Source: Pseudomonadota bacterium (GTDB lineage: Bacteria > Bdellovibrionota_G > JALEGL01 > DATDPG01). Taken from it: a stretch of 64,000 nt of DNA. A program made the translations under genes and the position numbers. Of this stretch, positions 24,400-32,561 are shown in pieces; the first letter of the stretch is position 1; the number at the start of each line of letters is the position of its first letter. The stretch covers positions 32,001 to 96,000 of the forward strand of contig JAZDDX010000016.1 of assembly GCA_043809315.1 (NCBI GenBank), read 5' to 3'. Below the pieces are notes generated by a model. That model made no database searches, was not told where the DNA came from, and saw nothing but the letters and a program-made list of their open reading frames with translations.

Positions 24400-25050
24400 T
24401 TGCTCTTCTCTAAAACCGCCTTCGTCGGACTTCTGCTCTTTCCGGTCGTGTTCCTGAGTTCATCGAACGCTTCGGCCGGAGCGGTCTATTCGTACGAAGA
24501 TTCGACAGGAACCGTTCGTTTCAGCGACGAACCTCCCTCCGTCGACAACTACATCGTCCGGTTGGAGAGCGAGATCGTCGCGTTCCGAACCGCGATCCGA
24601 AAATACTCCAAGGCGGAGCTTCGAGACCTGATCGCAAAGCTTTCCCAAGAACTGAACGTCGAGGCACCGCTGGTCGAGGCGGTTGTTAAGGCGGAATCGG
24701 AGTACGACGCGAGTGCCATTTCCAAGAAGGGGGCCCGCGGCCTGATGCAGTTGATGCCGGAGACCGCGCGTTCGTTCGGCGTCGTCGATCCGACCGATCC
24801 GACGGCGAACTTGACGGCGGGCATCGCGCACTTGAAGAAACTCCTGAAACGATTCGACGGAAATATCGACTTCGCGGTGGCAGCCTACAACGCAGGTGAG
24901 GGAGCGATCCGAAAACACCGCGGGGTCCCTCCCTACCCTGAAACCGTTGACTACCTCAGCAAGGTACGGAAGTATCACGCACACTTTGCCGAACTCGCCT
25001 CACGCTCCGCTTCCATTGACCCCGCTCGACCGCGAGTCGTCGCCGAATAG
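24400..25050 (+). CDS. lytic transglycosylase (SLT domain, N-terminal DUF4124-like)
   Basis: Signal peptide; VYSYEDSTGTVRFSDEP; AVVKAES, GARGLMQLMP, AAYNAG, PPYPETVDY. Confidence 0.9.
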   Translation: MLFSKTAFVGLLLFPVVFLSSSNASAGAVYSYEDSTGTVRFSDEPPSVDNYIVRLESEIVAFRTAIRKYSKAELRDLIAKLSQELNVEAPLVEAVVKAESEYDASAISKKGARGLMQLMPETARSFGVVDPTDPTANLTAGIAHLKKLLKRFDGNIDFAVAAYNAGEGAIRKHRGVPPYPETVDYLSKVRKYHAHFAELASRSASIDPARPRVVAE

Positions 25051-25621
25051 TCGCTCGATCTGGAACATCCCCAACGCGTTGACCGCGCTTCGGATCCTTT
25101 CGATCCCATTTTTGATCTACCTCCTCTACGAAACACCGACCACCGGAGATCGTTTTTTGGCCGCCGTTCTCTTCGGCGTCGCCTTCTGGACCGACTTTTT
25201 CGACGGAATGTTGGCCCGGCGGATGAAAAAGATCACGCGCCTGGGAAAAGTCATGGATCCGATGGCGGACAAGCTGATGGTGATCACGGCGCTGATCCTT
25301 TTGACCCATCTGAACGCCGTGAACGTCCTCGTGGTGATCCTGCTCGTCGGGCGCGAGGTGGTGGTGAACGCGCTGCGAGCCTTGGCCAGCGCCGAGGGGA
25401 TCGCGATCGCTCCGTCATTTTCGGGTCGCGCCAAGGTCTTTGCGGAGGGTTTTGGCGTCGCCATCTTGCTGGCAGGTCCGGAGTATCACTGGCTCGGCCT
25501 CCCCTGGACGGCACTGGGAAAGATCCTGATCTATCTCGCCGTCGGGCTCGCCCTCTGGTCGGCCGTCGTCTACTTCCGAAACTACTCTCGCGAGACCCCG
25601 TCGGAATCGTCCGCTTCTTGA
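25016..25621 (+). CDS. pgsA: CDP-diacylglycerol--glycerol-3-phosphate 3-phosphatidyltransferase
   Basis: NIPNALTALRI, TDFFDGMLAR...GKVMDPMADK CDP-alcohol motif; start uncertain. Confidence 0.9.
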   Translation: MTPLDRESSPNSRSIWNIPNALTALRILSIPFLIYLLYETPTTGDRFLAAVLFGVAFWTDFFDGMLARRMKKITRLGKVMDPMADKLMVITALILLTHLNAVNVLVVILLVGREVVVNALRALASAEGIAIAPSFSGRAKVFAEGFGVAILLAGPEYHWLGLPWTALGKILIYLAVGLALWSAVVYFRNYSRETPSESSAS

Positions 25622-25687
25622 TCCCCCCCGAAGCGCCTGCTAACGTCTCTGCCTGTGACGCCCGGGGAAACAGGTTCGAATCCGAGG

Positions 25688-25996
25688 ATGGAACGAGTCC
25701 GGGACCGACTGCTCGAGTTCATGGAGTGGCTGCGGTACGAGCTGACAAAGCTCTTCCAGATCGGACGACTCAAATACGACGCCACTTCGCTCCAGCGGGA
25801 GCGGACGGCCCTCTTCCAGGAGCTTGGGATGAAGGCGGCCGAGTTGGTCAAAAGGGGGGAAGTGACGTCGGAGGAGTTGAAGCTGATCGTCGAGCGGGTC
25901 GACACGCTGACCGCGCGGATCGAGGAACGGCGGACGGAGATGGAAAAGCTCGTCCGCACGCGGACCGACGACGAGCCCCCGGTCGCCCAGAAATGA
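25688..25996 (+). CDS. small coiled-coil hypothetical protein
   Basis: GAGG upstream of ATG; helical, charged composition; native codon usage. Confidence 0.6.
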   Translation: MERVRDRLLEFMEWLRYELTKLFQIGRLKYDATSLQRERTALFQELGMKAAELVKRGEVTSEELKLIVERVDTLTARIEERRTEMEKLVRTRTDDEPPVAQK

Positions 25997-26044
25997 CTGG
26001 TATTTTCCCGCGGTCACGGTAGAAAGCGTCGCTTTTCAGCCGGT

Positions 26045-26120
<76 letters not shown>

Positions 26121-26131
26121 ATTCTCAAATC

Positions 26132-26155
26132 AATTCGGGTCCAGTCGTGTGTCCC
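26132..26155. repeat. REP-like element arm (GGGGACAC family)
   Basis: TTCGGGTCCAGTCGTGTGTCC is the reverse complement (1 mismatch) of 57741-57761. Confidence 0.7.
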
Positions 26156-26159
26156 GATT

Positions 26160-27809
26160 TTAGGCGTGGCCGGTGGTCGGGGAGGTCGGCTTCCCGCGCG
26201 TCTTCCCGAGGTACTCCGCCATCGGGATCTGGTGCCCCGCCTCGACCTTCTCGCGGAAATAAGGACCGGCGTTGTAAGTGCAGAACGGGTAGATCTTCCC
26301 GTCCTGCGTCGAGTAGTGGACCACGCACCGCTTCGCCCGCTCGACGTCGTAGTTGTAATGATCCATGAAATGCATCCCGGCGACGAAGACGGTCGGAAAG
26401 AGCGTCCCCTGCCAGTTTTTCGCACGCGCCACTTCCTTGCTGCGGTATCCGTCGAGGCTCTTCAGGAACCGGTCCCACGTCAGCCCCTTCGGCGCCTTTT
26501 TCGGGTTGAAATGCTTCTTGAGCGCCTGGTACGCCCGGATCTTCGTGTAGGTCTGGAACGACGTCGGTTTCGTCTTCTCCGCCAGTTTGTTCAAGTCGGT
26601 GACAAGCGCCTTGTAGTTCAGGAACTCCGTCATCGCCGTCGCTTTCTGATCTTTGTCGACGAAGAGGAACCCGCCGATCGAGCAGTGCGGATGGCTCGAG
26701 ACCGTCGTCGCGTGCTTCCCGGTGAGCGCGCTCTGGAGCTTCGAAAACGGCGTGATCGAGGAGAGCGCCACCCAATCCCGGTCGACCTTCATGAGACCGT
26801 TCGTCTGGTCCTCTACGTCGTGCGCCAAGTCTCCCAGCGTGTATCTCTGGCGATCCAGCTCTTCTTTCGAGATGCGGCCGGAAAAACAAACCGGCTGGAA
26901 GCTGATCCCGGTCACCACGTCGACGTTCTCCACCGCGAACCGGACGATATCGCCGACCTGGTGGTCGTTCAGTCCCTTGAGGATCGTCGGCACCAAGACC
27001 ACGCGCGCACCGTTCGCCCGCATGTTCTCGATCGCCTTCATCTTCAGTTCCATCAGCGGCGCGCCGCGGGTCTCGCGGTAGATCTCGTCGTCGAACCCGT
27101 CGAACTGCAGATAAAGCGTGTGAAGCCCCGCTTCGACCGTCTTCCGCGTGAACTCGGCGTCGGCGAAGCGGATCCCGTTCGTGGGGCACTGGATGTGCGT
27201 GAACCCCATCTCCTTCGTCTTCTTGATGATGTCGAGGACCCGCGGGTGAATCGTCGGCTCGCCGCCGGCGAACTGGACGAACTGGCACGGCACGGGGCGG
27301 AGGTCACGAAGCTTCTGGAGCATCGTCACCACTTCGTCGTAGCTTGGCTCGAGAACCATCCCGGAGACGTTCGCGTTGGCGTAGCAGACCGGGCACTTCA
27401 AATTGCAGCGATTCGTCAGATCGACCATCCCGATCGCCGTGTGGCTGACGTGCAGGTTGCACATCCCGCAATCGGTCGGACAGGTTTCCGCATTGGTGAC
27501 CGGAGGGTTCGAAAAGCCGCGTTCATCCCCGAACGTCCAGCGTTCGACCTCTTTGAAGAGGTTCGCGTCCCGAAAGACGAAGAAGCTCATCGCACCATGT
27601 TCGGGGCAGACCTTGTCCATCCAGACATCGCCGTTCTTTTCGTTGAGCGTCGCCTCGATGACGCGGGAGCAGGTAGGACAGAGAGAGGTGGTCAGCTTCG
27701 GGAGGCCAGGGGTGATGGCCTTGATCGGCGAGCCGCAGTACGTGCTCAGGGTTGAAGGCTCTTCCTTCCGCCTCGAGGGGAAAAGGGTCCCGAAACTCGG
27801 CAGCTCCAT
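26160..27809 (-). CDS. radical SAM protein, tetraether lipid synthase (Tes/GDGT-MAS, MJ0619) family
   Basis: SLCPTC...CPEHG, CPTDCGMCNLH, NRCNLKCPVC, QFAGGEPT, YLQFDG, SSHPHC, MHFMDHYNYDVERAKRCVVHY...PFCTYN. Confidence 0.85.
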   Translation of the reverse strand: MELPSFGTLFPSRRKEEPSTLSTYCGSPIKAITPGLPKLTTSLCPTCSRVIEATLNEKNGDVWMDKVCPEHGAMSFFVFRDANLFKEVERWTFGDERGFSNPPVTNAETCPTDCGMCNLHVSHTAIGMVDLTNRCNLKCPVCYANANVSGMVLEPSYDEVVTMLQKLRDLRPVPCQFVQFAGGEPTIHPRVLDIIKKTKEMGFTHIQCPTNGIRFADAEFTRKTVEAGLHTLYLQFDGFDDEIYRETRGAPLMELKMKAIENMRANGARVVLVPTILKGLNDHQVGDIVRFAVENVDVVTGISFQPVCFSGRISKEELDRQRYTLGDLAHDVEDQTNGLMKVDRDWVALSSITPFSKLQSALTGKHATTVSSHPHCSIGGFLFVDKDQKATAMTEFLNYKALVTDLNKLAEKTKPTSFQTYTKIRAYQALKKHFNPKKAPKGLTWDRFLKSLDGYRSKEVARAKNWQGTLFPTVFVAGMHFMDHYNYDVERAKRCVVHYSTQDGKIYPFCTYNAGPYFREKVEAGHQIPMAEYLGKTRGKPTSPTTGHA

Positions 27810-27854
27810 AGGCAGGCCCCTATACAGCAAATCGCGTCAATTGGAAAATCGGCC

Positions 27855-28418
27855 TTACCAGTTGAACGAGAGCGAATTGGTGACCTTGTAGTGGCACCGG
27901 CCGTTCCGGTCGGTCCAACCGACAAGGGCTCGGATCAGCTTCTCGCTCGTCGAAAGAGCAGGATTGAGGTTGTCACAGGCCAGTTCCGGAGGGCGGTACG
28001 TTCCGGTCACGTTCCCCCCGCAATAGGTGGGGCTCCCGCCGACGGTCACGCCGGTCGTCGCAGAGGTACAGATCACGATGCTCCGGAAATAGGAGTATGG
28101 CCCGCTCCCAGCTCCCGACTCTTGTCCGATCTTGTTGAGCGGTCCGATCGTATAAACCGATCCGCCGTTCAGGCCGTTGAGGCTGGGAGCGGAAGCGTCC
28201 GTCCCCAGGGCGTTCCAGGCGACGTTCGCGAAATCCTCGATTGCCGATTGGAGCAGGGTGGCAGCCTCGTCCGACCCTTTCGCGACGCGATTCCCCTGCG
28301 CCTGCATCATCGTCATTCCCGCGAAACCGATCAGACCGACGACAAAGATGACCACGCCGACCATTACCTCGATCAGCGTAAACCCCGGATCGGAACGAGG
28401 GGGAAGGGAACGGATCAT
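27855..28418 (-). CDS. type IV minor pilin, PilV-like
   Basis: Class III signal G|FTLIEVMVGVVIFVVGLIG; Cys-containing globular domain. Confidence 0.8.
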   Translation of the reverse strand: MIRSLPPRSDPGFTLIEVMVGVVIFVVGLIGFAGMTMMQAQGNRVAKGSDEAATLLQSAIEDFANVAWNALGTDASAPSLNGLNGGSVYTIGPLNKIGQESGAGSGPYSYFRSIVICTSATTGVTVGGSPTYCGGNVTGTYRPPELACDNLNPALSTSEKLIRALVGWTDRNGRCHYKVTNSLSFNW

Positions 28419-28936
28419 TCGGCTCCGTCCGGTCGTTTGAGAAGCGCGAGGAGTTCCTCCGCCTTCGGTTTGGCCCCCGTCGAATCGTTCCCCGCGATCA
28501 CCGACCTCGCGAGCTCCTGGGCCTGCGTCACCACATTCTCCTCGGTCTCCAGGAAGTGGTTCAACGGCTCCCGCATCGGAAGGAGGTAATCGTACTTCCG
28601 GAATCGGACACGGGCGCTCCGATCCCCCTCCATCCAAGCACTCAGCACGTTCGACAACCCCTGCATCGGCCCCGCGAGCCGATGAGCCATCAGGACCCCG
28701 ATGATGAAAAGAACGATCATCGCCACGAACATGAGCGGCCATTTGATCAGGATCGTGCGGTTCAACTCATCGAGCAGCCAGGGGGCCGACTCCTCCCCGA
28801 ACCAATCGCTCATCGGGGGGACGAAGAGGAGGAACGCGCAGAGGATGATGAAGCCGATCGCAACGAAGACCACTTCGAGGCCGAACCAGATCTGCTGTCT
28901 GGGGTTCACAAAACTCTTACGTCTGCGCCAAATCAT
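28415..28936 (-). CDS. two-TM membrane protein with HAMP-like segment
   Basis: RRKSFVNPRQQ N-terminus, two TM helices, HRLAGP...RFRKYD. Confidence 0.7.
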   Translation of the reverse strand: MIWRRRKSFVNPRQQIWFGLEVVFVAIGFIILCAFLLFVPPMSDWFGEESAPWLLDELNRTILIKWPLMFVAMIVLFIIGVLMAHRLAGPMQGLSNVLSAWMEGDRSARVRFRKYDYLLPMREPLNHFLETEENVVTQAQELARSVIAGNDSTGAKPKAEELLALLKRPDGAE

Positions 28937-28945
28937 GCGACCTCC

Positions 28946-29362
28946 CTAATAAAGTTTCGTATCTACCTTCCGAAGAGAAACCAGCCGGATAATTCCAAAC
29001 ATTTCGGTCGGCTGAAGATCCAAAAAAGCCACTTCCACCCCCGACCCCAGCCACGAGTCTTTCAGCAAATGGAACGACATCGGCCGGAGTTCGAGAAGGT
29101 ACCGGGCGGCCCCCGGACTCCCCTCCAGGTCTTTCAGGCGCCGGAGTTCGAGACGATACGGAGGGGCCGTTTCGTCGCGCGCTTCGCTCACCCGGAGAGT
29201 GATCTTCCGAGTCGTAAGCTTCGCACGAATCTCTTCCACTTGCGACCAGGCACTTTCCGCGGGAGGCAAAAGCACGGGGCCGGTCTTGCTGTAGATGAAG
29301 AGGATGATCGCAAAGAGAACGAACCCCCCCAAGATCCAGGCGACGCCGGGGATATCCCTCAT
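28946..29362 (-). CDS. single-TM hypothetical protein
   Basis: GGAGG upstream, MRDIPGVAWILGGFVLFAIILF; overlaps upstream stop (ATGA). Confidence 0.6.
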   Translation of the reverse strand: MRDIPGVAWILGGFVLFAIILFIYSKTGPVLLPPAESAWSQVEEIRAKLTTRKITLRVSEARDETAPPYRLELRRLKDLEGSPGAARYLLELRPMSFHLLKDSWLGSGVEVAFLDLQPTEMFGIIRLVSLRKVDTKLY

Positions 29363-30183
29363 CTCCCCACCTCCTCCGCGATGACGAGCCAGGGCTCGAA
29401 GAACAGCTCCCCCTCCCGGATCCACCATCTCCCCGGGCGAGGCATCGTCCCCATCCCCGAAAGCGGGAATCGGCGCCGCAAGCGGCAGTCTCCCGATTCG
29501 AAATCGAGCGCCGCGAGAACCGTATCGCGTCCCTTTTCCACGGTGCCGGCCAGACGGAACCGTTCGAATCCGGAGCCGAGCGGCTTCCGCTCGTTCACCG
29601 ACCGGCGTTCGTACAGAATCTTCTGCGTTCCGCTCACCTCTTCCGCATCGAAGAAGACCGGACGGACGCCGACGACGAACGAACCCCCCGGAAAGAGCGT
29701 CGTGATCGAGTTCCCTTCGGGAGCGATCTCGACAAAAATCTGAGCTCTCCCGGCGACCACCCGCCGAACCGTGCCCGACCCCACCACGTTGTCCGAACAG
29801 ACGATGACCTGCTGCCCCGCAGCGAACTCCAGCCCCGTCGGAAGCGGAAGCTGGTTCGGGGAAGGCATGGAACGTACCGTGGGAGCGGCCGCTTCGATTT
29901 CGAGAAGCCGGAAGGCCCCGGTTTTCTCGTCGGTCCCGATCGGCGAAAACCCGGCTTTGAGACAGGGGGCGGCCGAGATCTCCCATCTCCGGAGCTTGGT
30001 TTCGATCTCATCCGCCATCCGGATCCAGCTCCACTTCTTCTCGACACAATCCCTCGATGAAAGAGCGATCACTTTCTTCTGTCGGAGCGTGAAGAACGAC
30101 ACCGTCAGCGCAAACAAAAGGAAGGTCGCCAGAACGATCTCGAGGACCGTCAACCCCCTCTGGGTGGATCTTCTCCCCCTCAT
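29359..30183 (-). CDS. prepilin-type N-terminal protein (PilW-like)
   Basis: QRG|LTVLEIVLATFLLFAL class III signal. Confidence 0.65.
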   Translation of the reverse strand: MRGRRSTQRGLTVLEIVLATFLLFALTVSFFTLRQKKVIALSSRDCVEKKWSWIRMADEIETKLRRWEISAAPCLKAGFSPIGTDEKTGAFRLLEIEAAAPTVRSMPSPNQLPLPTGLEFAAGQQVIVCSDNVVGSGTVRRVVAGRAQIFVEIAPEGNSITTLFPGGSFVVGVRPVFFDAEEVSGTQKILYERRSVNERKPLGSGFERFRLAGTVEKGRDTVLAALDFESGDCRLRRRFPLSGMGTMPRPGRWWIREGELFFEPWLVIAEEVGR

Positions 30184-30230
30184 ACGCAGTCGTTCAAAAG
30201 CGTAATGGAGCCGACCGGAGGTGTATAGTA

Positions 30231-31466
30231 TTAGTAACTTTCTTCCCAGGCCGCCGTGATCAACCGTCCCGGCACACCGCCGGTTCCGGTGCCGTTTGCG
30301 TTATTGACCGCCTCAAGGCCGGCGGCCATCCCGGAGCTGCTGAACGCAACGAGTGCATTTCCTTTCACGGAAAGCTCCTTCACCGCGTCCGGCGTCTCGG
30401 AACGGAAGATGATCTTCCCCAGAAGTTGGCAGGTGCCGACCTCCCCGGTGAATGTCATGTCGGAAAAGGCCCCCATCATCAGGACCGGCCCGACCATCGT
30501 CGTCGTTCCGGACATGTCGATGCTCGTGTTGCTGGCGACCACATAAACCCCGCAGGAGTATCCCTTGATATTGATGCTGGTCGACGCCGTGTTGATGATG
30601 AAGATTTTCGGGCTGGTGCAAGGATTGTCCCCGGTGTAATTGCTCCCCGTCAAAACCTCAACCCCCGGGGCAGAGGCGCTGACCGAGGCCCACTGGTTAT
30701 AAAACGTCTGCCACTGGTCACAGCCTGCTGCGGAGCCCGTACTTTGGTCCGCAATTGCGGGAGTGGCACCCCCCGACACACTGACGTTGACCGTGGAACT
30801 CCCGATGATGTCCCAGTTCGCGGTCGTTCCTGCTTCCGGGGTCGTGTTACACCCCGACCCGGTACAGCCGTAAGGGGGATACGGATAGTTCGCCCCGTCG
30901 ATCGTCGCGTTCGTCCCTTTTTGGAGCGTGTCGATCGCCCCGCAGGCGAGGATTGCCGAATCGCAGCCGCCCGGAGGGGTCGGGGAGCAGTCGCTCGGGT
31001 TCGGAGGATAGGTGATCGGATTGGTCCCGTTGATCAGCTGGACATAGGTCGTGATGATGCCTTTTCCCCCCTGGTTGTTCCGGCCGGTCGAGATCACCTT
31101 GATGATCCCGTTCGTGTCGTTCAGGGGGTTGGAATCACCGTCCCGCTCGTCGTCATCCACGGTGACTTCGTACGTCCCGCCGTTGAACGGCGTCGAGGAG
31201 ATCAGGTACGCCCCGTAATACGTGGTCAGGATGCTCGTGAATCCGTTTGCGGCGGATAGGGCCGGCTCCAGACGCGGCCGGGCTCTTGCCAGCCCCGCTT
31301 CGGCAATGTTGAAGATGTCGACCGTCTTCGAGTAGTTGCCGCTCACCTTGACGGCCGAGGTGGTGGTCGCCGCCCCGGTGATCAGGAAGAAGCTCATCGC
31401 CATCAGTGCGATCAGGGCGATGACGACCACAAAACCGCTTTCTCGGTACCGACGTTTCCTTTCCAT
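30231..31466 (-). CDS. type IV minor pilin, PilX-like, long Thr/Gly/Cys-rich head
   Basis: ESG|FVVVIALIAL (no Glu5), FNIAEAGL, VISTG, C-terminal AWEE. Confidence 0.8.
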   Translation of the reverse strand: MERKRRYRESGFVVVIALIALMAMSFFLITGAATTTSAVKVSGNYSKTVDIFNIAEAGLARARPRLEPALSAANGFTSILTTYYGAYLISSTPFNGGTYEVTVDDDERDGDSNPLNDTNGIIKVISTGRNNQGGKGIITTYVQLINGTNPITYPPNPSDCSPTPPGGCDSAILACGAIDTLQKGTNATIDGANYPYPPYGCTGSGCNTTPEAGTTANWDIIGSSTVNVSVSGGATPAIADQSTGSAAGCDQWQTFYNQWASVSASAPGVEVLTGSNYTGDNPCTSPKIFIINTASTSINIKGYSCGVYVVASNTSIDMSGTTTMVGPVLMMGAFSDMTFTGEVGTCQLLGKIIFRSETPDAVKELSVKGNALVAFSSSGMAAGLEAVNNANGTGTGGVPGRLITAAWEESY

Positions 31467-31474
31467 ACCCCCTC

Positions 31475-32101
31475 CTACCGGAAGTTCCGGAGTTTGAAGT
31501 CCATCTGGATCTCCTTCGTGTCCTCGGTCCCGGTGTTCGGGTTGACTCTCCCGGTTCCGGCGACCATGTGGAGGCGGACGAGACGGATGAGGCTCGGGTC
31601 GGCTGCGGTCGTGATCCAATCGGTGTGCCCTATAACCTGATAGCTCAGGTCGAACGCCCGTACGTTTTCGATCACGAGGTGGTTTCCCGCCTGGCGGCGG
31701 ATCTCATCCTTGACTCCATCGGGGCTGTCCGGATTGTCGATGTACTGGTACGTGATGTTCTCGTCGCTCACGGGATCGATCGATCCGTTGCCGTTCAGGT
31801 CGGCGTAGATCTGGATCTGGTCGGACGAGGCGATGCCGATCGGGATGACCGCTCCTGCCGAGTACCCCATCGCCCCCGCCGGATTCGACCCGGCCCGGCG
31901 GATGTCCCGCCCGATGATGAAGAACGCGATTTGGGCGATCGACTCGGTGTCGGCCCGAAGCCGCTGGACCGTCGCCGTCTTCCTCGTCTTGGCCACGAAC
32001 GAATAGATGCCGGCGATCACGACGGTCGAGATGAGGAGCGTGATCATCATCTCGATGAGAGAGAACGCCAGAAGGCGGATTCTATGGGGTCTTGAGTTCA
32101 A
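31475..32101 (-). CDS. type IV minor pilin, PilW-like
   Basis: A|FSLIEMMITLLI, RDIRRAG, ADLNGNG, IENV, C-terminal LRN. Confidence 0.8.
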   Translation of the reverse strand: MNSRPHRIRLLAFSLIEMMITLLISTVVIAGIYSFVAKTRKTATVQRLRADTESIAQIAFFIIGRDIRRAGSNPAGAMGYSAGAVIPIGIASSDQIQIYADLNGNGSIDPVSDENITYQYIDNPDSPDGVKDEIRRQAGNHLVIENVRAFDLSYQVIGHTDWITTAADPSLIRLVRLHMVAGTGRVNPNTGTEDTKEIQMDFKLRNFR

Positions 32102-32561
32102 TGGCCCCCCCAGGAAAAATATAGATCGATTTGGTTCTCGCGGCCCCCAATCCCGTGATGGTCACGAAAGCGGAGGAGGAACCCAGTGCATTTAGGAACA
32201 TGCCCCGGGGAGTGGCGGTGATGACAATGGAAGGAAGGGCTGCAAGGTAGGTATCCGAAGGCATGTTCCGGATATCCCCGATGTCGGTCCAAGTCGCCGT
32301 ATCCGTATCGTACTGTTGGATCTTCCAGGAGGTCACGTTCTGGAACGTCATCCGGTGATCGGCATTCGTTGAAAGAGCCCGGCTGCGGATCAGGATCAGA
32401 TCGTCGTAAATCTGCTGGGTTCCGCGACTGATATAGTCCCCGGATTCGGTGCCCCGCAACGTCGCGATGAAGACGGTAAGGAGAACCGCCACGATCGTCA
32501 GAACGACGACCACTTCGACCAGGGTAACCCCCCGCAATCGGTTTCTTACAATCGTGCGCAT
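32082..32561 (-). CDS. type IV minor pilin, FimU/FimT-like
   Basis: RG|VTLVEVVVVLTIVAVL, DLILIRSRAL, C-terminal IFPGG. Confidence 0.8.
   Translation of the reverse strand: MRTIVRNRLRGVTLVEVVVVLTIVAVLLTVFIATLRGTESGDYISRGTQQIYDDLILIRSRALSTNADHRMTFQNVTSWKIQQYDTDTATWTDIGDIRNMPSDTYLAALPSIVITATPRGMFLNALGSSSAFVTITGLGAARTKSIYIFPGGAIELKTP

Follow-up and report, generated by a model that had tools for sequence, protein, structure and literature searches.

Which bacteria couple the tails of their membrane lipids, and with which enzyme? The question is raised here by a gene for a full-length radical S-adenosylmethionine (SAM) enzyme resembling the archaeal tetraether synthase Tes, which we call Tes1 and which lies in a 64,000-nucleotide stretch of bacterial DNA (hereafter the window; positions 32,001 to 96,000 of contig JAZDDX010000016.1, assembly GCA_043809315.1). 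Glycerol dialkyl glycerol tetraethers of the branched type (brGDGTs) count among the most used terrestrial proxies for past temperature and pH, and to our knowledge neither their producers nor the enzyme that couples their tails have been established so far. Judging by sequence, bacterial Tes homologs would be, as far as we know, the leading candidates outside the anaerobes that carry the enzyme Mss. Our analysis indicates that Tes1 belongs to the Tes/GDGT-MAS family, on which a curated cut-off, the metal ligands, the fold and the clade placement agree, and that it probably (we put the probability at about 0.6) couples the tails of bacterial acyl/alkyl glycerolipids into membrane-spanning or macrocyclic lipids.

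The gene occupies a single long minus-strand open reading frame (ORF) at window positions 26160..27830, which from its TTG start would encode 556 aa, and from an ATG at 27809 encodes 549 aa. Since the two closest database homologs are 549 aa each, with 100% coverage, and an AGGGG stands about 8 nt 5' of the ATG, we preferred this start over the TTG at 27830. The coordinates 26160-27809 given in the initial annotation of the window, which had been made from the sequence, were therefore exact, the stop codon lying at 26160-26162 on the minus strand. All the motifs listed there were also found in the translation at the residues given, namely CPTC (44-47), CPEH (68-71), CPTDCGMCNLH (110-120) and CNLKCPVC (135-142) in the N-terminal part, and SSHPHC (371-376), MHFMD (479-483), RCVVHY (494-499) and PFCTYN (508-513) in the C-terminal part. 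The reading frame contains no internal stops and has lost no ligand.

The NCBIfam equivalog model for the tetraether lipid synthase Tes (NF045702) gave Tes1 530.8 bits, with the cut-off set at 450 (E 2.9e-159; 531 bits in the search of the genome), with an alignment spanning model positions 2-485 of 486, so that NCBI's own model would assign the Tes name to this protein automatically. Pfam searches returned the radical SAM domain PF04055 (81.1 bits, 1.4e-22, residues 131-292) and the HMPTM zinc ribbon PF23545 (60.6 bits, 1e-16), and in the PDB the sole strong match was the Methanocaldococcus jannaschii GDGT-MAS, MJ0619 (7TOL/7TOM; 7TOL E 4.6e-119, residues 36-533). Motif and family matches of this kind are far beyond what chance is expected to produce, and the end-to-end alignment to 7TOL bears out the MJ0619/Tes-like motif order that the initial annotation had described. 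A different assignment, to one of the neighbouring families of TrsS radical SAM (seleno)proteins or pterin dimethyltransferases (HMPTM), could be argued from the TrsS model NF045646, which was the second best for Tes1, and from the name '7,8-dihydro-6-hydroxymethylpterin dimethyltransferase' that some database homologs still bear. The TrsS score however, at 346.7 bits, misses its cut-off of 490 and is much lower than that for Tes, and Lloyd 2022 (PMC9433317) report that they could not corroborate a methylase and that the long hydrophobic pocket suggests the annotation to be incorrect; we regard this assignment as extremely improbable.

The same conclusion on the family was reached from the metal sites. 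As described by Lloyd et al. 2022 (PMC9433317), whose residue numbering we follow (numbers in the PDB chain differ from the native ones by 20), MJ0619 has a rubredoxin-like site (C9/C12/C33/H36), an N-terminal cluster (C73/C77/C80 and a His), the radical SAM motif CX3CX2C, a labile Met439 and Tyr459. Each of these residues aligns with an identical residue in Tes1 (Table 1), and in both proteins the rubredoxin-like ribbon, the N-terminal [4Fe-4S] cluster, the radical SAM core and the C-terminal [4Fe-4S] cluster follow in the same order. The initial annotation had also held that the archaeal enzyme uses the Met of MHFMD and the Tyr of xxHY. Both are conserved (M479 and Y499), but the use of the Tyr does not stand, as the strictly conserved Tyr459 could be replaced in the Y459F and Y459L variants, which stayed robustly active (Lloyd 2022, PMC9433317). 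C376, M479, C495, Y499 and C510 are invariant in our homolog alignment A1 and kept in the Tes1, Tes2 (see below) and main acidobacterial clades, and from this conservation C376, C495 and C510 are the putative ligands of the C-terminal cluster. All 17 ligand and catalytic positions checked are intact in the three rows of the Tes1 clade and in 38/38 main acidobacterial rows, as they are in the Tes2 clade where covered (one of its six rows ends at a contig edge), and the three radical SAM Cys are kept in all 66 rows of the first tree described below, wherever covered. This ligand test discriminates, because a Marinimicrobia-type clade (6 rows) and a divergent copy in genome G005 (genomes, contigs and loci carry our own G, C and L numbers) fail it: both lack two of the three Cys of the C-terminal cluster and Tyr459, and Met439 is also absent in the Marinimicrobia-type rows.

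An AlphaFold2 model built from a 53-row alignment (predicted local distance difference test score 87.4, predicted template modelling score 0.89) was compared with known structures using Foldseek. The top matches were 7TOM and 7TOL, with template modelling (TM) scores of 0.84/0.92, a root mean square deviation of 2.5 A and 38% identity over 500 columns, and the next fold was MoaA, at TM 0.33. The superposition includes the C-terminal helical region of the model (TM 0.92). Tes1 is accordingly modelled in the four-domain GDGT-MAS fold, with lipid tunnels predicted from the overall superposition.

The initial annotation had suggested placing the protein on a Tes phylogeny, and two quick IQ-TREE trees were computed. 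The first had 66 rows, after removal of two duplicates, of six loci that were fragmentary or frameshifted, and of ORFs below 380 aa; the second had 52 rows (34 of those 66 plus 18 archaeal) and was rooted on a ligand-deficient clade, its archaea being Thermoproteota only, without MJ0619. Row L055 (genome G042) was included in the first tree and the ligand table but not in the second tree, and none of our claims depends on it. In both trees the window gene forms a clade with orthologs from two other genomes, G001 (74% identity) and G015 (66%), with a Shimodaira-Hasegawa-like approximate likelihood ratio test (SH-aLRT) support of 100, while a second copy in the host genome, Tes2, groups separately with five relatives (SH-aLRT 99-100). 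Tes1, Tes2, the Acidobacteriota sequences and those of two other bacterial genomes make up a 28-row bacterial clade (SH-aLRT 98), which lies inside a 49-row Tes group (SH-aLRT 100), apart from the ligand-deficient outgroup. Tes1 thus falls within the Tes group and not in the ligand-deficient sister groups (52-row tree). Beside the bacterial clade stand a 16-row archaeal clade (SH-aLRT 99) and a Bathyarchaeia/Vulcanimicrobiota/Synergistia group; with this archaeal sample, the branching order among the three groups and within the bacterial clade is without resolution.

The host genome (G000) measures 2.42 Mb in 44 contigs and is 96% complete. Its GTDB phylum comprises 17 species genomes, and the initial annotation's description of the host as delta-type is roughly right: the sole named member of the phylum is labelled Oligoflexia, which NCBI taxonomy places in Bdellovibrionota, and a 75%-identical protein in the database is labelled Pseudomonadota. 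NF045702 matched 8 of the 17 phylum genomes at E <= 1e-50, seven of them above the cut-off, and 12/41 genomes in a wider sample of relatives; as a positive control it matched 39/41 Thermoproteota genomes at E <= 1e-80, with roughly 590-737 bits. In a collection of 5.8 billion proteins, 5439 of 7999 scored candidates matched Tes1 at E <= 1e-20, and among the 120 matches listed six besides the query were 59-80% identical, the others 52-57%. The 57 genome loci with Tes homologs that were retrieved were titled Acidobacteriota in 43 cases, and the remainder comprised one Oligoflexia (66%), one Clostridia-labelled, one Bathyarchaeia (39%), one Synergistia, three Vulcanimicrobiota (37%), one Nitrosotalea, five Marinimicrobia-type (about 29-30%) and one unnamed bacterium.

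The patchy distribution in the phylum, and the fact that the nearest large group of relatives belongs to another phylum, the Acidobacteriota, could also be read to mean that Tes1 is a non-functional passenger, be it a recent horizontal gain, a binning contaminant or a decaying copy. Against this, the gene is carried by a contig of 181,731 bp with an even GC content of about 0.60 across the window, where it is surrounded by the genes of an ordinary bacterial chromosome, including the housekeeping genes rpoD, dnaG, polA, carAB and lepA as well as accD, aroA, prmC, prfA, recG and metK, together with sigma-54 regulators and a minor-pilin cluster. Since there are also orthologs in two other genomes of the phylum in a fully supported clade, and neither the frame nor the ligands of Tes1 show decay, we hold this explanation to be very improbable.

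A search for ether-lipid genes elsewhere in the genome, which the initial annotation had proposed as a check, was positive. Specifically contig C19 encodes a Ger/PlsA-type protein of 1417 aa with two PF01869 (BcrAD_BadFG) domains followed by PF09989 (DUF2229), the B-B-D core that is described as conserved in all alkyl-ether producers (Sahonero-Canavesi 2022); its last ~530 residues have no Pfam match, and its contig differs from that of Tes1. Over ~987 residues it is 35% identical to a B-B-D protein that adjoins Tes in Bryobacteraceae, where such a protein stands directly and divergently upstream of Tes in 4/37 acidobacterial loci examined (all four Bryobacteraceae). In the host phylum DUF2229 was found in 3/3 Tes1-bearing genomes, in 1/5 with Tes2 only and in 1/9 without Tes; this co-occurrence of Tes1 with Ger is a hint and not a test, the genomes being few and related. 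PF06050 (PlsR/HGD-D) had no match in the host genome, and the control Thermotoga maritima, which encodes a confirmed Ger (Sahonero-Canavesi 2022), likewise matched PF09989 and not PF06050. When seven further radical SAM ORFs were scanned against NCBIfam together with the Ger-like protein, the matches were MoaA, a protein of the TIGR04053 family and several SPASM-type ones below threshold; none of the seven was placed in a named lipid family, in a scan that included no Mss reference sequence or model.

The lipid genes also bear on the possibility that Tes1 makes isoprenoid GDGTs or macrocyclic archaeol from archaeal-type diethers of the host's own. Its membership in an archaeal enzyme family with every ligand kept would fit such a role. 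The 96%-complete genome however gave no match to PF01884 (GGGPS/PcrB) or PF01864 (CDP-archaeol synthase, CarS) in searches whose archaeal controls were positive and in which G1PDH and DGGGPS were not included, and the host has an ordinary bacterial pgsA and one CdsA locus (contig C26, PF01148 search). We therefore consider archaeal-type products highly unlikely.

Sequence, cofactor set and fold point to a working Tes-type enzyme. The activity that we infer for Tes1, the coupling of bacterial glycerolipid tails, would follow the mechanism described for archaeal GDGT-MAS. Two glycerolipids would each insert one tail into the hydrophobic pocket, where 5'-deoxyadenosyl radicals generated from two SAM molecules would abstract hydrogen first from one terminal carbon and then from the other. 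The substrate radical formed first would be trapped through a C-S bond to a sulfur of the C-terminal [4Fe-4S] cluster, from which the labile M479 would swing off, and the second radical would then attack to form the C-C bond. The substrates would most likely be bacterial acyl/alkyl glycerophospholipids and the products diabolic-acid-type, brGDGT-type or macrocyclic lipids. A bacterial glycerolipid is preferred to archaeol as substrate because the archaeol pathway gave no match, but a bacterial pgsA and a Ger/PlsA-type reductase are present. In archaeal GDGT-MAS head-group binding is non-specific according to Lloyd 2022 (PMC9433317), in whose crystals the lipid pockets were occupied by phosphatidic acid from E. 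coli.

Several points weigh against this reading. We found no activity test of a bacterial Tes homolog in the literature. The membrane-spanning synthesis demonstrated in bacteria (Thermotoga, Thermoanaerobacter) uses Mss and not Tes, and Tes homologs are reported in only 3/14 acidobacteria that produce iso-diabolic acid (Sahonero-Canavesi 2022); a 2025 Black Sea study records Tes homologues in 281 bacterial metagenome-assembled genomes (MAGs), with activity unconfirmed, and an August 2026 review, in its passages on Tes, names the bacterial homologs only as bioinformatic detections and cites no activity. The bit scores on NF045702, at about 531-548, are below the roughly 590-737 of the sampled archaeal Tes. 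Within the phylum, 4/5 Tes2-only genomes have no Ger-like gene, and the complete genome G004 has a Ger-like gene without Tes. The host assembly is fragmented, and its two sets of E1 alpha/beta 2-oxoacid dehydrogenase, which bear on the supply of iso-branched chains, both fall below the curated pyruvate dehydrogenase cut-offs. Three B12-binding radical SAM proteins (L081-L083, on C26, C11 and C43) have no match above a curated cut-off and receive no Grs-type assignment, in a scan with no Grs model among its families. Finally, pgsA, which is close to Tes1 in the window, was not found by tblastn beside its orthologs in G001 (16 kb) or G015 (7.9 kb).

Some of these points would also fit the same radical chemistry acting on the tail of another hydrophobic substrate, such as another alkyl-chain metabolite, or stopping at a different product, such as a sulfur adduct or an intramolecular cross-link. 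No bacterial Tes activity is known to us, the bacterial clade stands apart from the archaeal one and scores lower on an archaeal-trained model, the Tes2-only relatives mostly have no ether reductase, and no gene for lipid synthesis is conserved beside Tes1. On the other side, the whole fold, with its C-terminal helical region, superposes on GDGT-MAS, the archaeal enzyme is described as accepting the E. coli lipid without head-group specificity, and the reductase adjoining Tes recurs in Bryobacteraceae. We judge another substrate or product to be rather unlikely, though by no means negligible, and retain the coupling of glycerolipid tails as the preferred reading.

Among known systems, MJ0619 differs from Tes1 in its host. 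That of Tes1 is a bacterium in which no archaeol pathway was detected, so that the substrate would not be the archaeal saturated diether, and Tes1 sits in a separate, bacterial clade. The acidobacterial Tes homologs of Ca. Solibacter usitatus, Ca. Koribacter versatilis and Bryobacteraceae, proposed as brGDGT synthases, share the bacterial clade, the ligands and about 46-56% identity with Tes1. For S. usitatus, PlsAR and Tes homologs (with GrsA/B) have been proposed to make brGDGTs (Halamka 2022), and like the host it has two Tes homologs and a PlsA/Ger-type reductase. The host differs from the Acidobacteriota in its phylum, in its distinct and well-supported Tes1 and Tes2 lineages and in its small 2.4-Mb genome. 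Mss of Thermotoga and Thermoanaerobacter, also a radical SAM enzyme, joins two bacterial acyl tails, the reaction proposed here for Tes1; its relationship to Tes is described as no more than remote (Sahonero-Canavesi 2022). The C19 protein shares the B-B-D core with Ger and PlsA, is unlinked to Tes1, and with the available family models is of a type not separable into Ger or PlsA.

The idea of bacterial Tes enzymes dates from 2022, since when 456 bacterial homologs have been in print as brGDGT candidates. What is new here is modest: a host lineage for which no report was found, two complete and ancient paralogs in one small genome, and the co-occurrence of Tes1 with Ger. Specifically none of the papers listed in our search connected Tes or tetraethers to Bdellovibrionota or Oligoflexia, in a search whose scope did not include Supplementary Table 2 of Zeng 2022 (class level), so that an earlier mention is possible. 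The locus does not change the picture of brGDGT synthesis; it adds for comparison a compact lineage with two Tes paralogs and one Ger-type reductase, and within the phylum it offers a natural experiment, with genomes that have Tes1 and Ger, Tes2 alone, Ger alone or neither. If the proposed activity is real, the possible sources of brGDGTs would widen beyond the Acidobacteriota.

The initial annotation had also drawn attention to the proximity of pgsA on the opposite strand (Table 1). The proximity is real, with 539 bp between pgsA and the stop codon of Tes1, but we rejected a functional linkage because the two genes are convergent, a tRNA-Ala lies between them along with a 113-aa ORF without family match, and the adjacency is not conserved in G001 or G015. 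pgsA is a neighbour and not an operon partner of Tes1, and the proximity is incidental. When the window neighbours (pgsA, SLT, the pilin-like gene and others) were compared by tblastn with the Tes loci of G001 and G015, only Tes and a weak lepA-family match in G001 (27%) were found. The end of an upstream pilin-like gene on the same strand is 45 nt away from the start of Tes1, and the two are possibly co-transcribed; the gap between them contains no terminator-like site, and an uninformative scan of 25500-28900 found no sigma-70-like promoter. A search for sequencing runs listed none of RNA. The pilin-like gene belongs to a series of ORFs that extends upstream from Tes1 and is probably a minor-pilin or pseudopilin cluster; two of them have a prepilin N-methylation motif, and several are without family match.

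Table 1. Coordinates of Tes1, its metal sites and neighbouring features (window positions), and of features around Tes2 (locus positions).
Feature	Position	Strand	Evidence
Tes1, Tes/GDGT-MAS-family radical SAM enzyme	26160..27809	-	ORF, NF045702, 7TOL, AlphaFold model
Rubredoxin-like iron site, C44/C47/C68/H71 (MJ0619 C9/C12/C33/H36)	27597..27680	-	7TOL alignment, PF23545; kept in 3/3 Tes1-clade rows
N-terminal auxiliary [4Fe-4S] ligands, C110/C114/C117/H120 (MJ0619 C73/C77/C80 and conserved His)	27450..27482	-	invariant in homolog alignment A1
Radical SAM CX3CX2C, C135/C139/C142	27384..27407	-	PF04055; invariant in A1
C-terminal auxiliary-cluster domain, C376, M479 (Met439, labile ligand), C495, Y499 (Tyr459), C510	26280..26684	-	7TOL alignment
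pgsA, CDP-diacylglycerol--glycerol-3-phosphate 3-phosphatidyltransferase	24896..25621	+	TIGR00560 128.7 bits, cut-off 109.1
tRNA-Ala(GGC), 40 nt past the Tes1 stop, convergent	26045..26120	+	ARAGORN
Pilin-like gene, N-terminal methylation motif	27855..28742	-	PF07963 3.5e-06
ORF string upstream of Tes1	27855-32561	-	
Tes2 (contig C14)	L066:2685-4499	-	NF045702 533.5 bits
Stand-alone BcrAD/BadFG activase (contig C14)	L066:1846-2682	+	
CcmP-like tandem shell protein (contig C14)	L066:5053-5700	-	NF053796 271.5 bits, under cut-off 340
ORFs upstream of Tes2	L085:7994-8563, L086:11315-12142, L087:10253-10822, L088:8059-8622		

The second paralog, Tes2, is full-length (605 aa), scores above the cut-off of the Tes model and is 47% identical to Tes1. 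It has MHFQD in place of MHFMD, the altered residue not being the Met439 ligand, and only in the host, among the 17 genomes of the phylum, do both paralogs occur together. In the window's own family (G000, G002 and G003, including loci L073 and L077) Tes2 ends in a Cys/Gly/His-rich tail, which may bind a metal, and in G005, G008 and G011 this tail is not present. A stand-alone activase of 279 aa is convergent with Tes2 and overlaps its 3' end. It represents a diverged copy of the first ATPase domain encoded by the host's Ger-like gene, with 83% amino-acid identity over 247 residues and similarity extending into ~50 nt of upstream DNA, and the ratio of nonsynonymous to synonymous divergence (dN/dS) of about 0.11, at a dS of about 1, points to divergence under purifying selection. 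That an activase is a conserved neighbour of Tes2 was rejected, as no activase match was found near Tes2 in G002, G003, G005, G008 or G011.

With Tes1 always accompanied by Ger, and Tes2 mostly found without it, carrying its tail in the window's own family and, in the host, standing beside a selectively maintained activase, one may speculate that membrane-spanning lipids have in this phylum a source outside the Acidobacteriota, in which the two paralogs divide the work. Tes1 together with Ger would then make brGDGT-type tetraethers, and Tes2 would yield tetraesters or macrocyclic lipids, the ATP-driven activase perhaps serving as its low-potential electron donor. We regard this scheme as doubtful and give it little chance.

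Other features around Tes2 vary between genomes. An ORF of about 190-276 aa without Pfam match stands directly upstream of Tes2 in G003, G005, G008 and G011 and is missing in the host, and near Tes2 there is also a small ORF for a secreted, Cys-rich protein (103 aa in the host), which lies near Tes2 in G005, G008 and G011 as well. The CcmP-like shell protein close to Tes2 is 78% identical in G003. Since genes with bacterial microcompartment (BMC) domains are found on C15 and C33 besides this protein, the host genome seems to encode a bacterial microcompartment.

Some minor observations concern the wider family. One of the three B12-binding radical SAM proteins of the host is HpnJ-like (386.8 bits vs a cut-off of 577.6). 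The Tes homolog L041, from a record titled Clostridia bacterium, is nested with full support in the acidobacterial clade beside an Acidobacteria MAG, which suggests a mis-binned contig or a recent transfer. Among L046-L049, from Vulcanimicrobiota and a MAG labelled Synergistia, a gene for a CDP-alcohol phosphatidyltransferase stands ~1 kb upstream of the Tes-like gene in L048, and a cluster of ORFs from four loci that contains this transferase may mark the same gene in relatives; if so, Tes would here be found close to a head-group transferase for a second time, independently of the first. The divergent G005 copy (L078, contig C152), which has a branch length of 3.95, keeps Met439, lacks C-terminal cluster Cys and Tyr459, and represents a third Tes type in the host phylum. 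Finally, in the Acidobacteriota loci L024, L026, L044 and L050 the main Tes homolog has a Tes-like paralog of ~700 aa directly upstream, in which the ligands of the rubredoxin, radical SAM and C-terminal sites are intact but all four of the N-terminal cluster have been lost, whereas both paralogs of the host keep all four metal sites.

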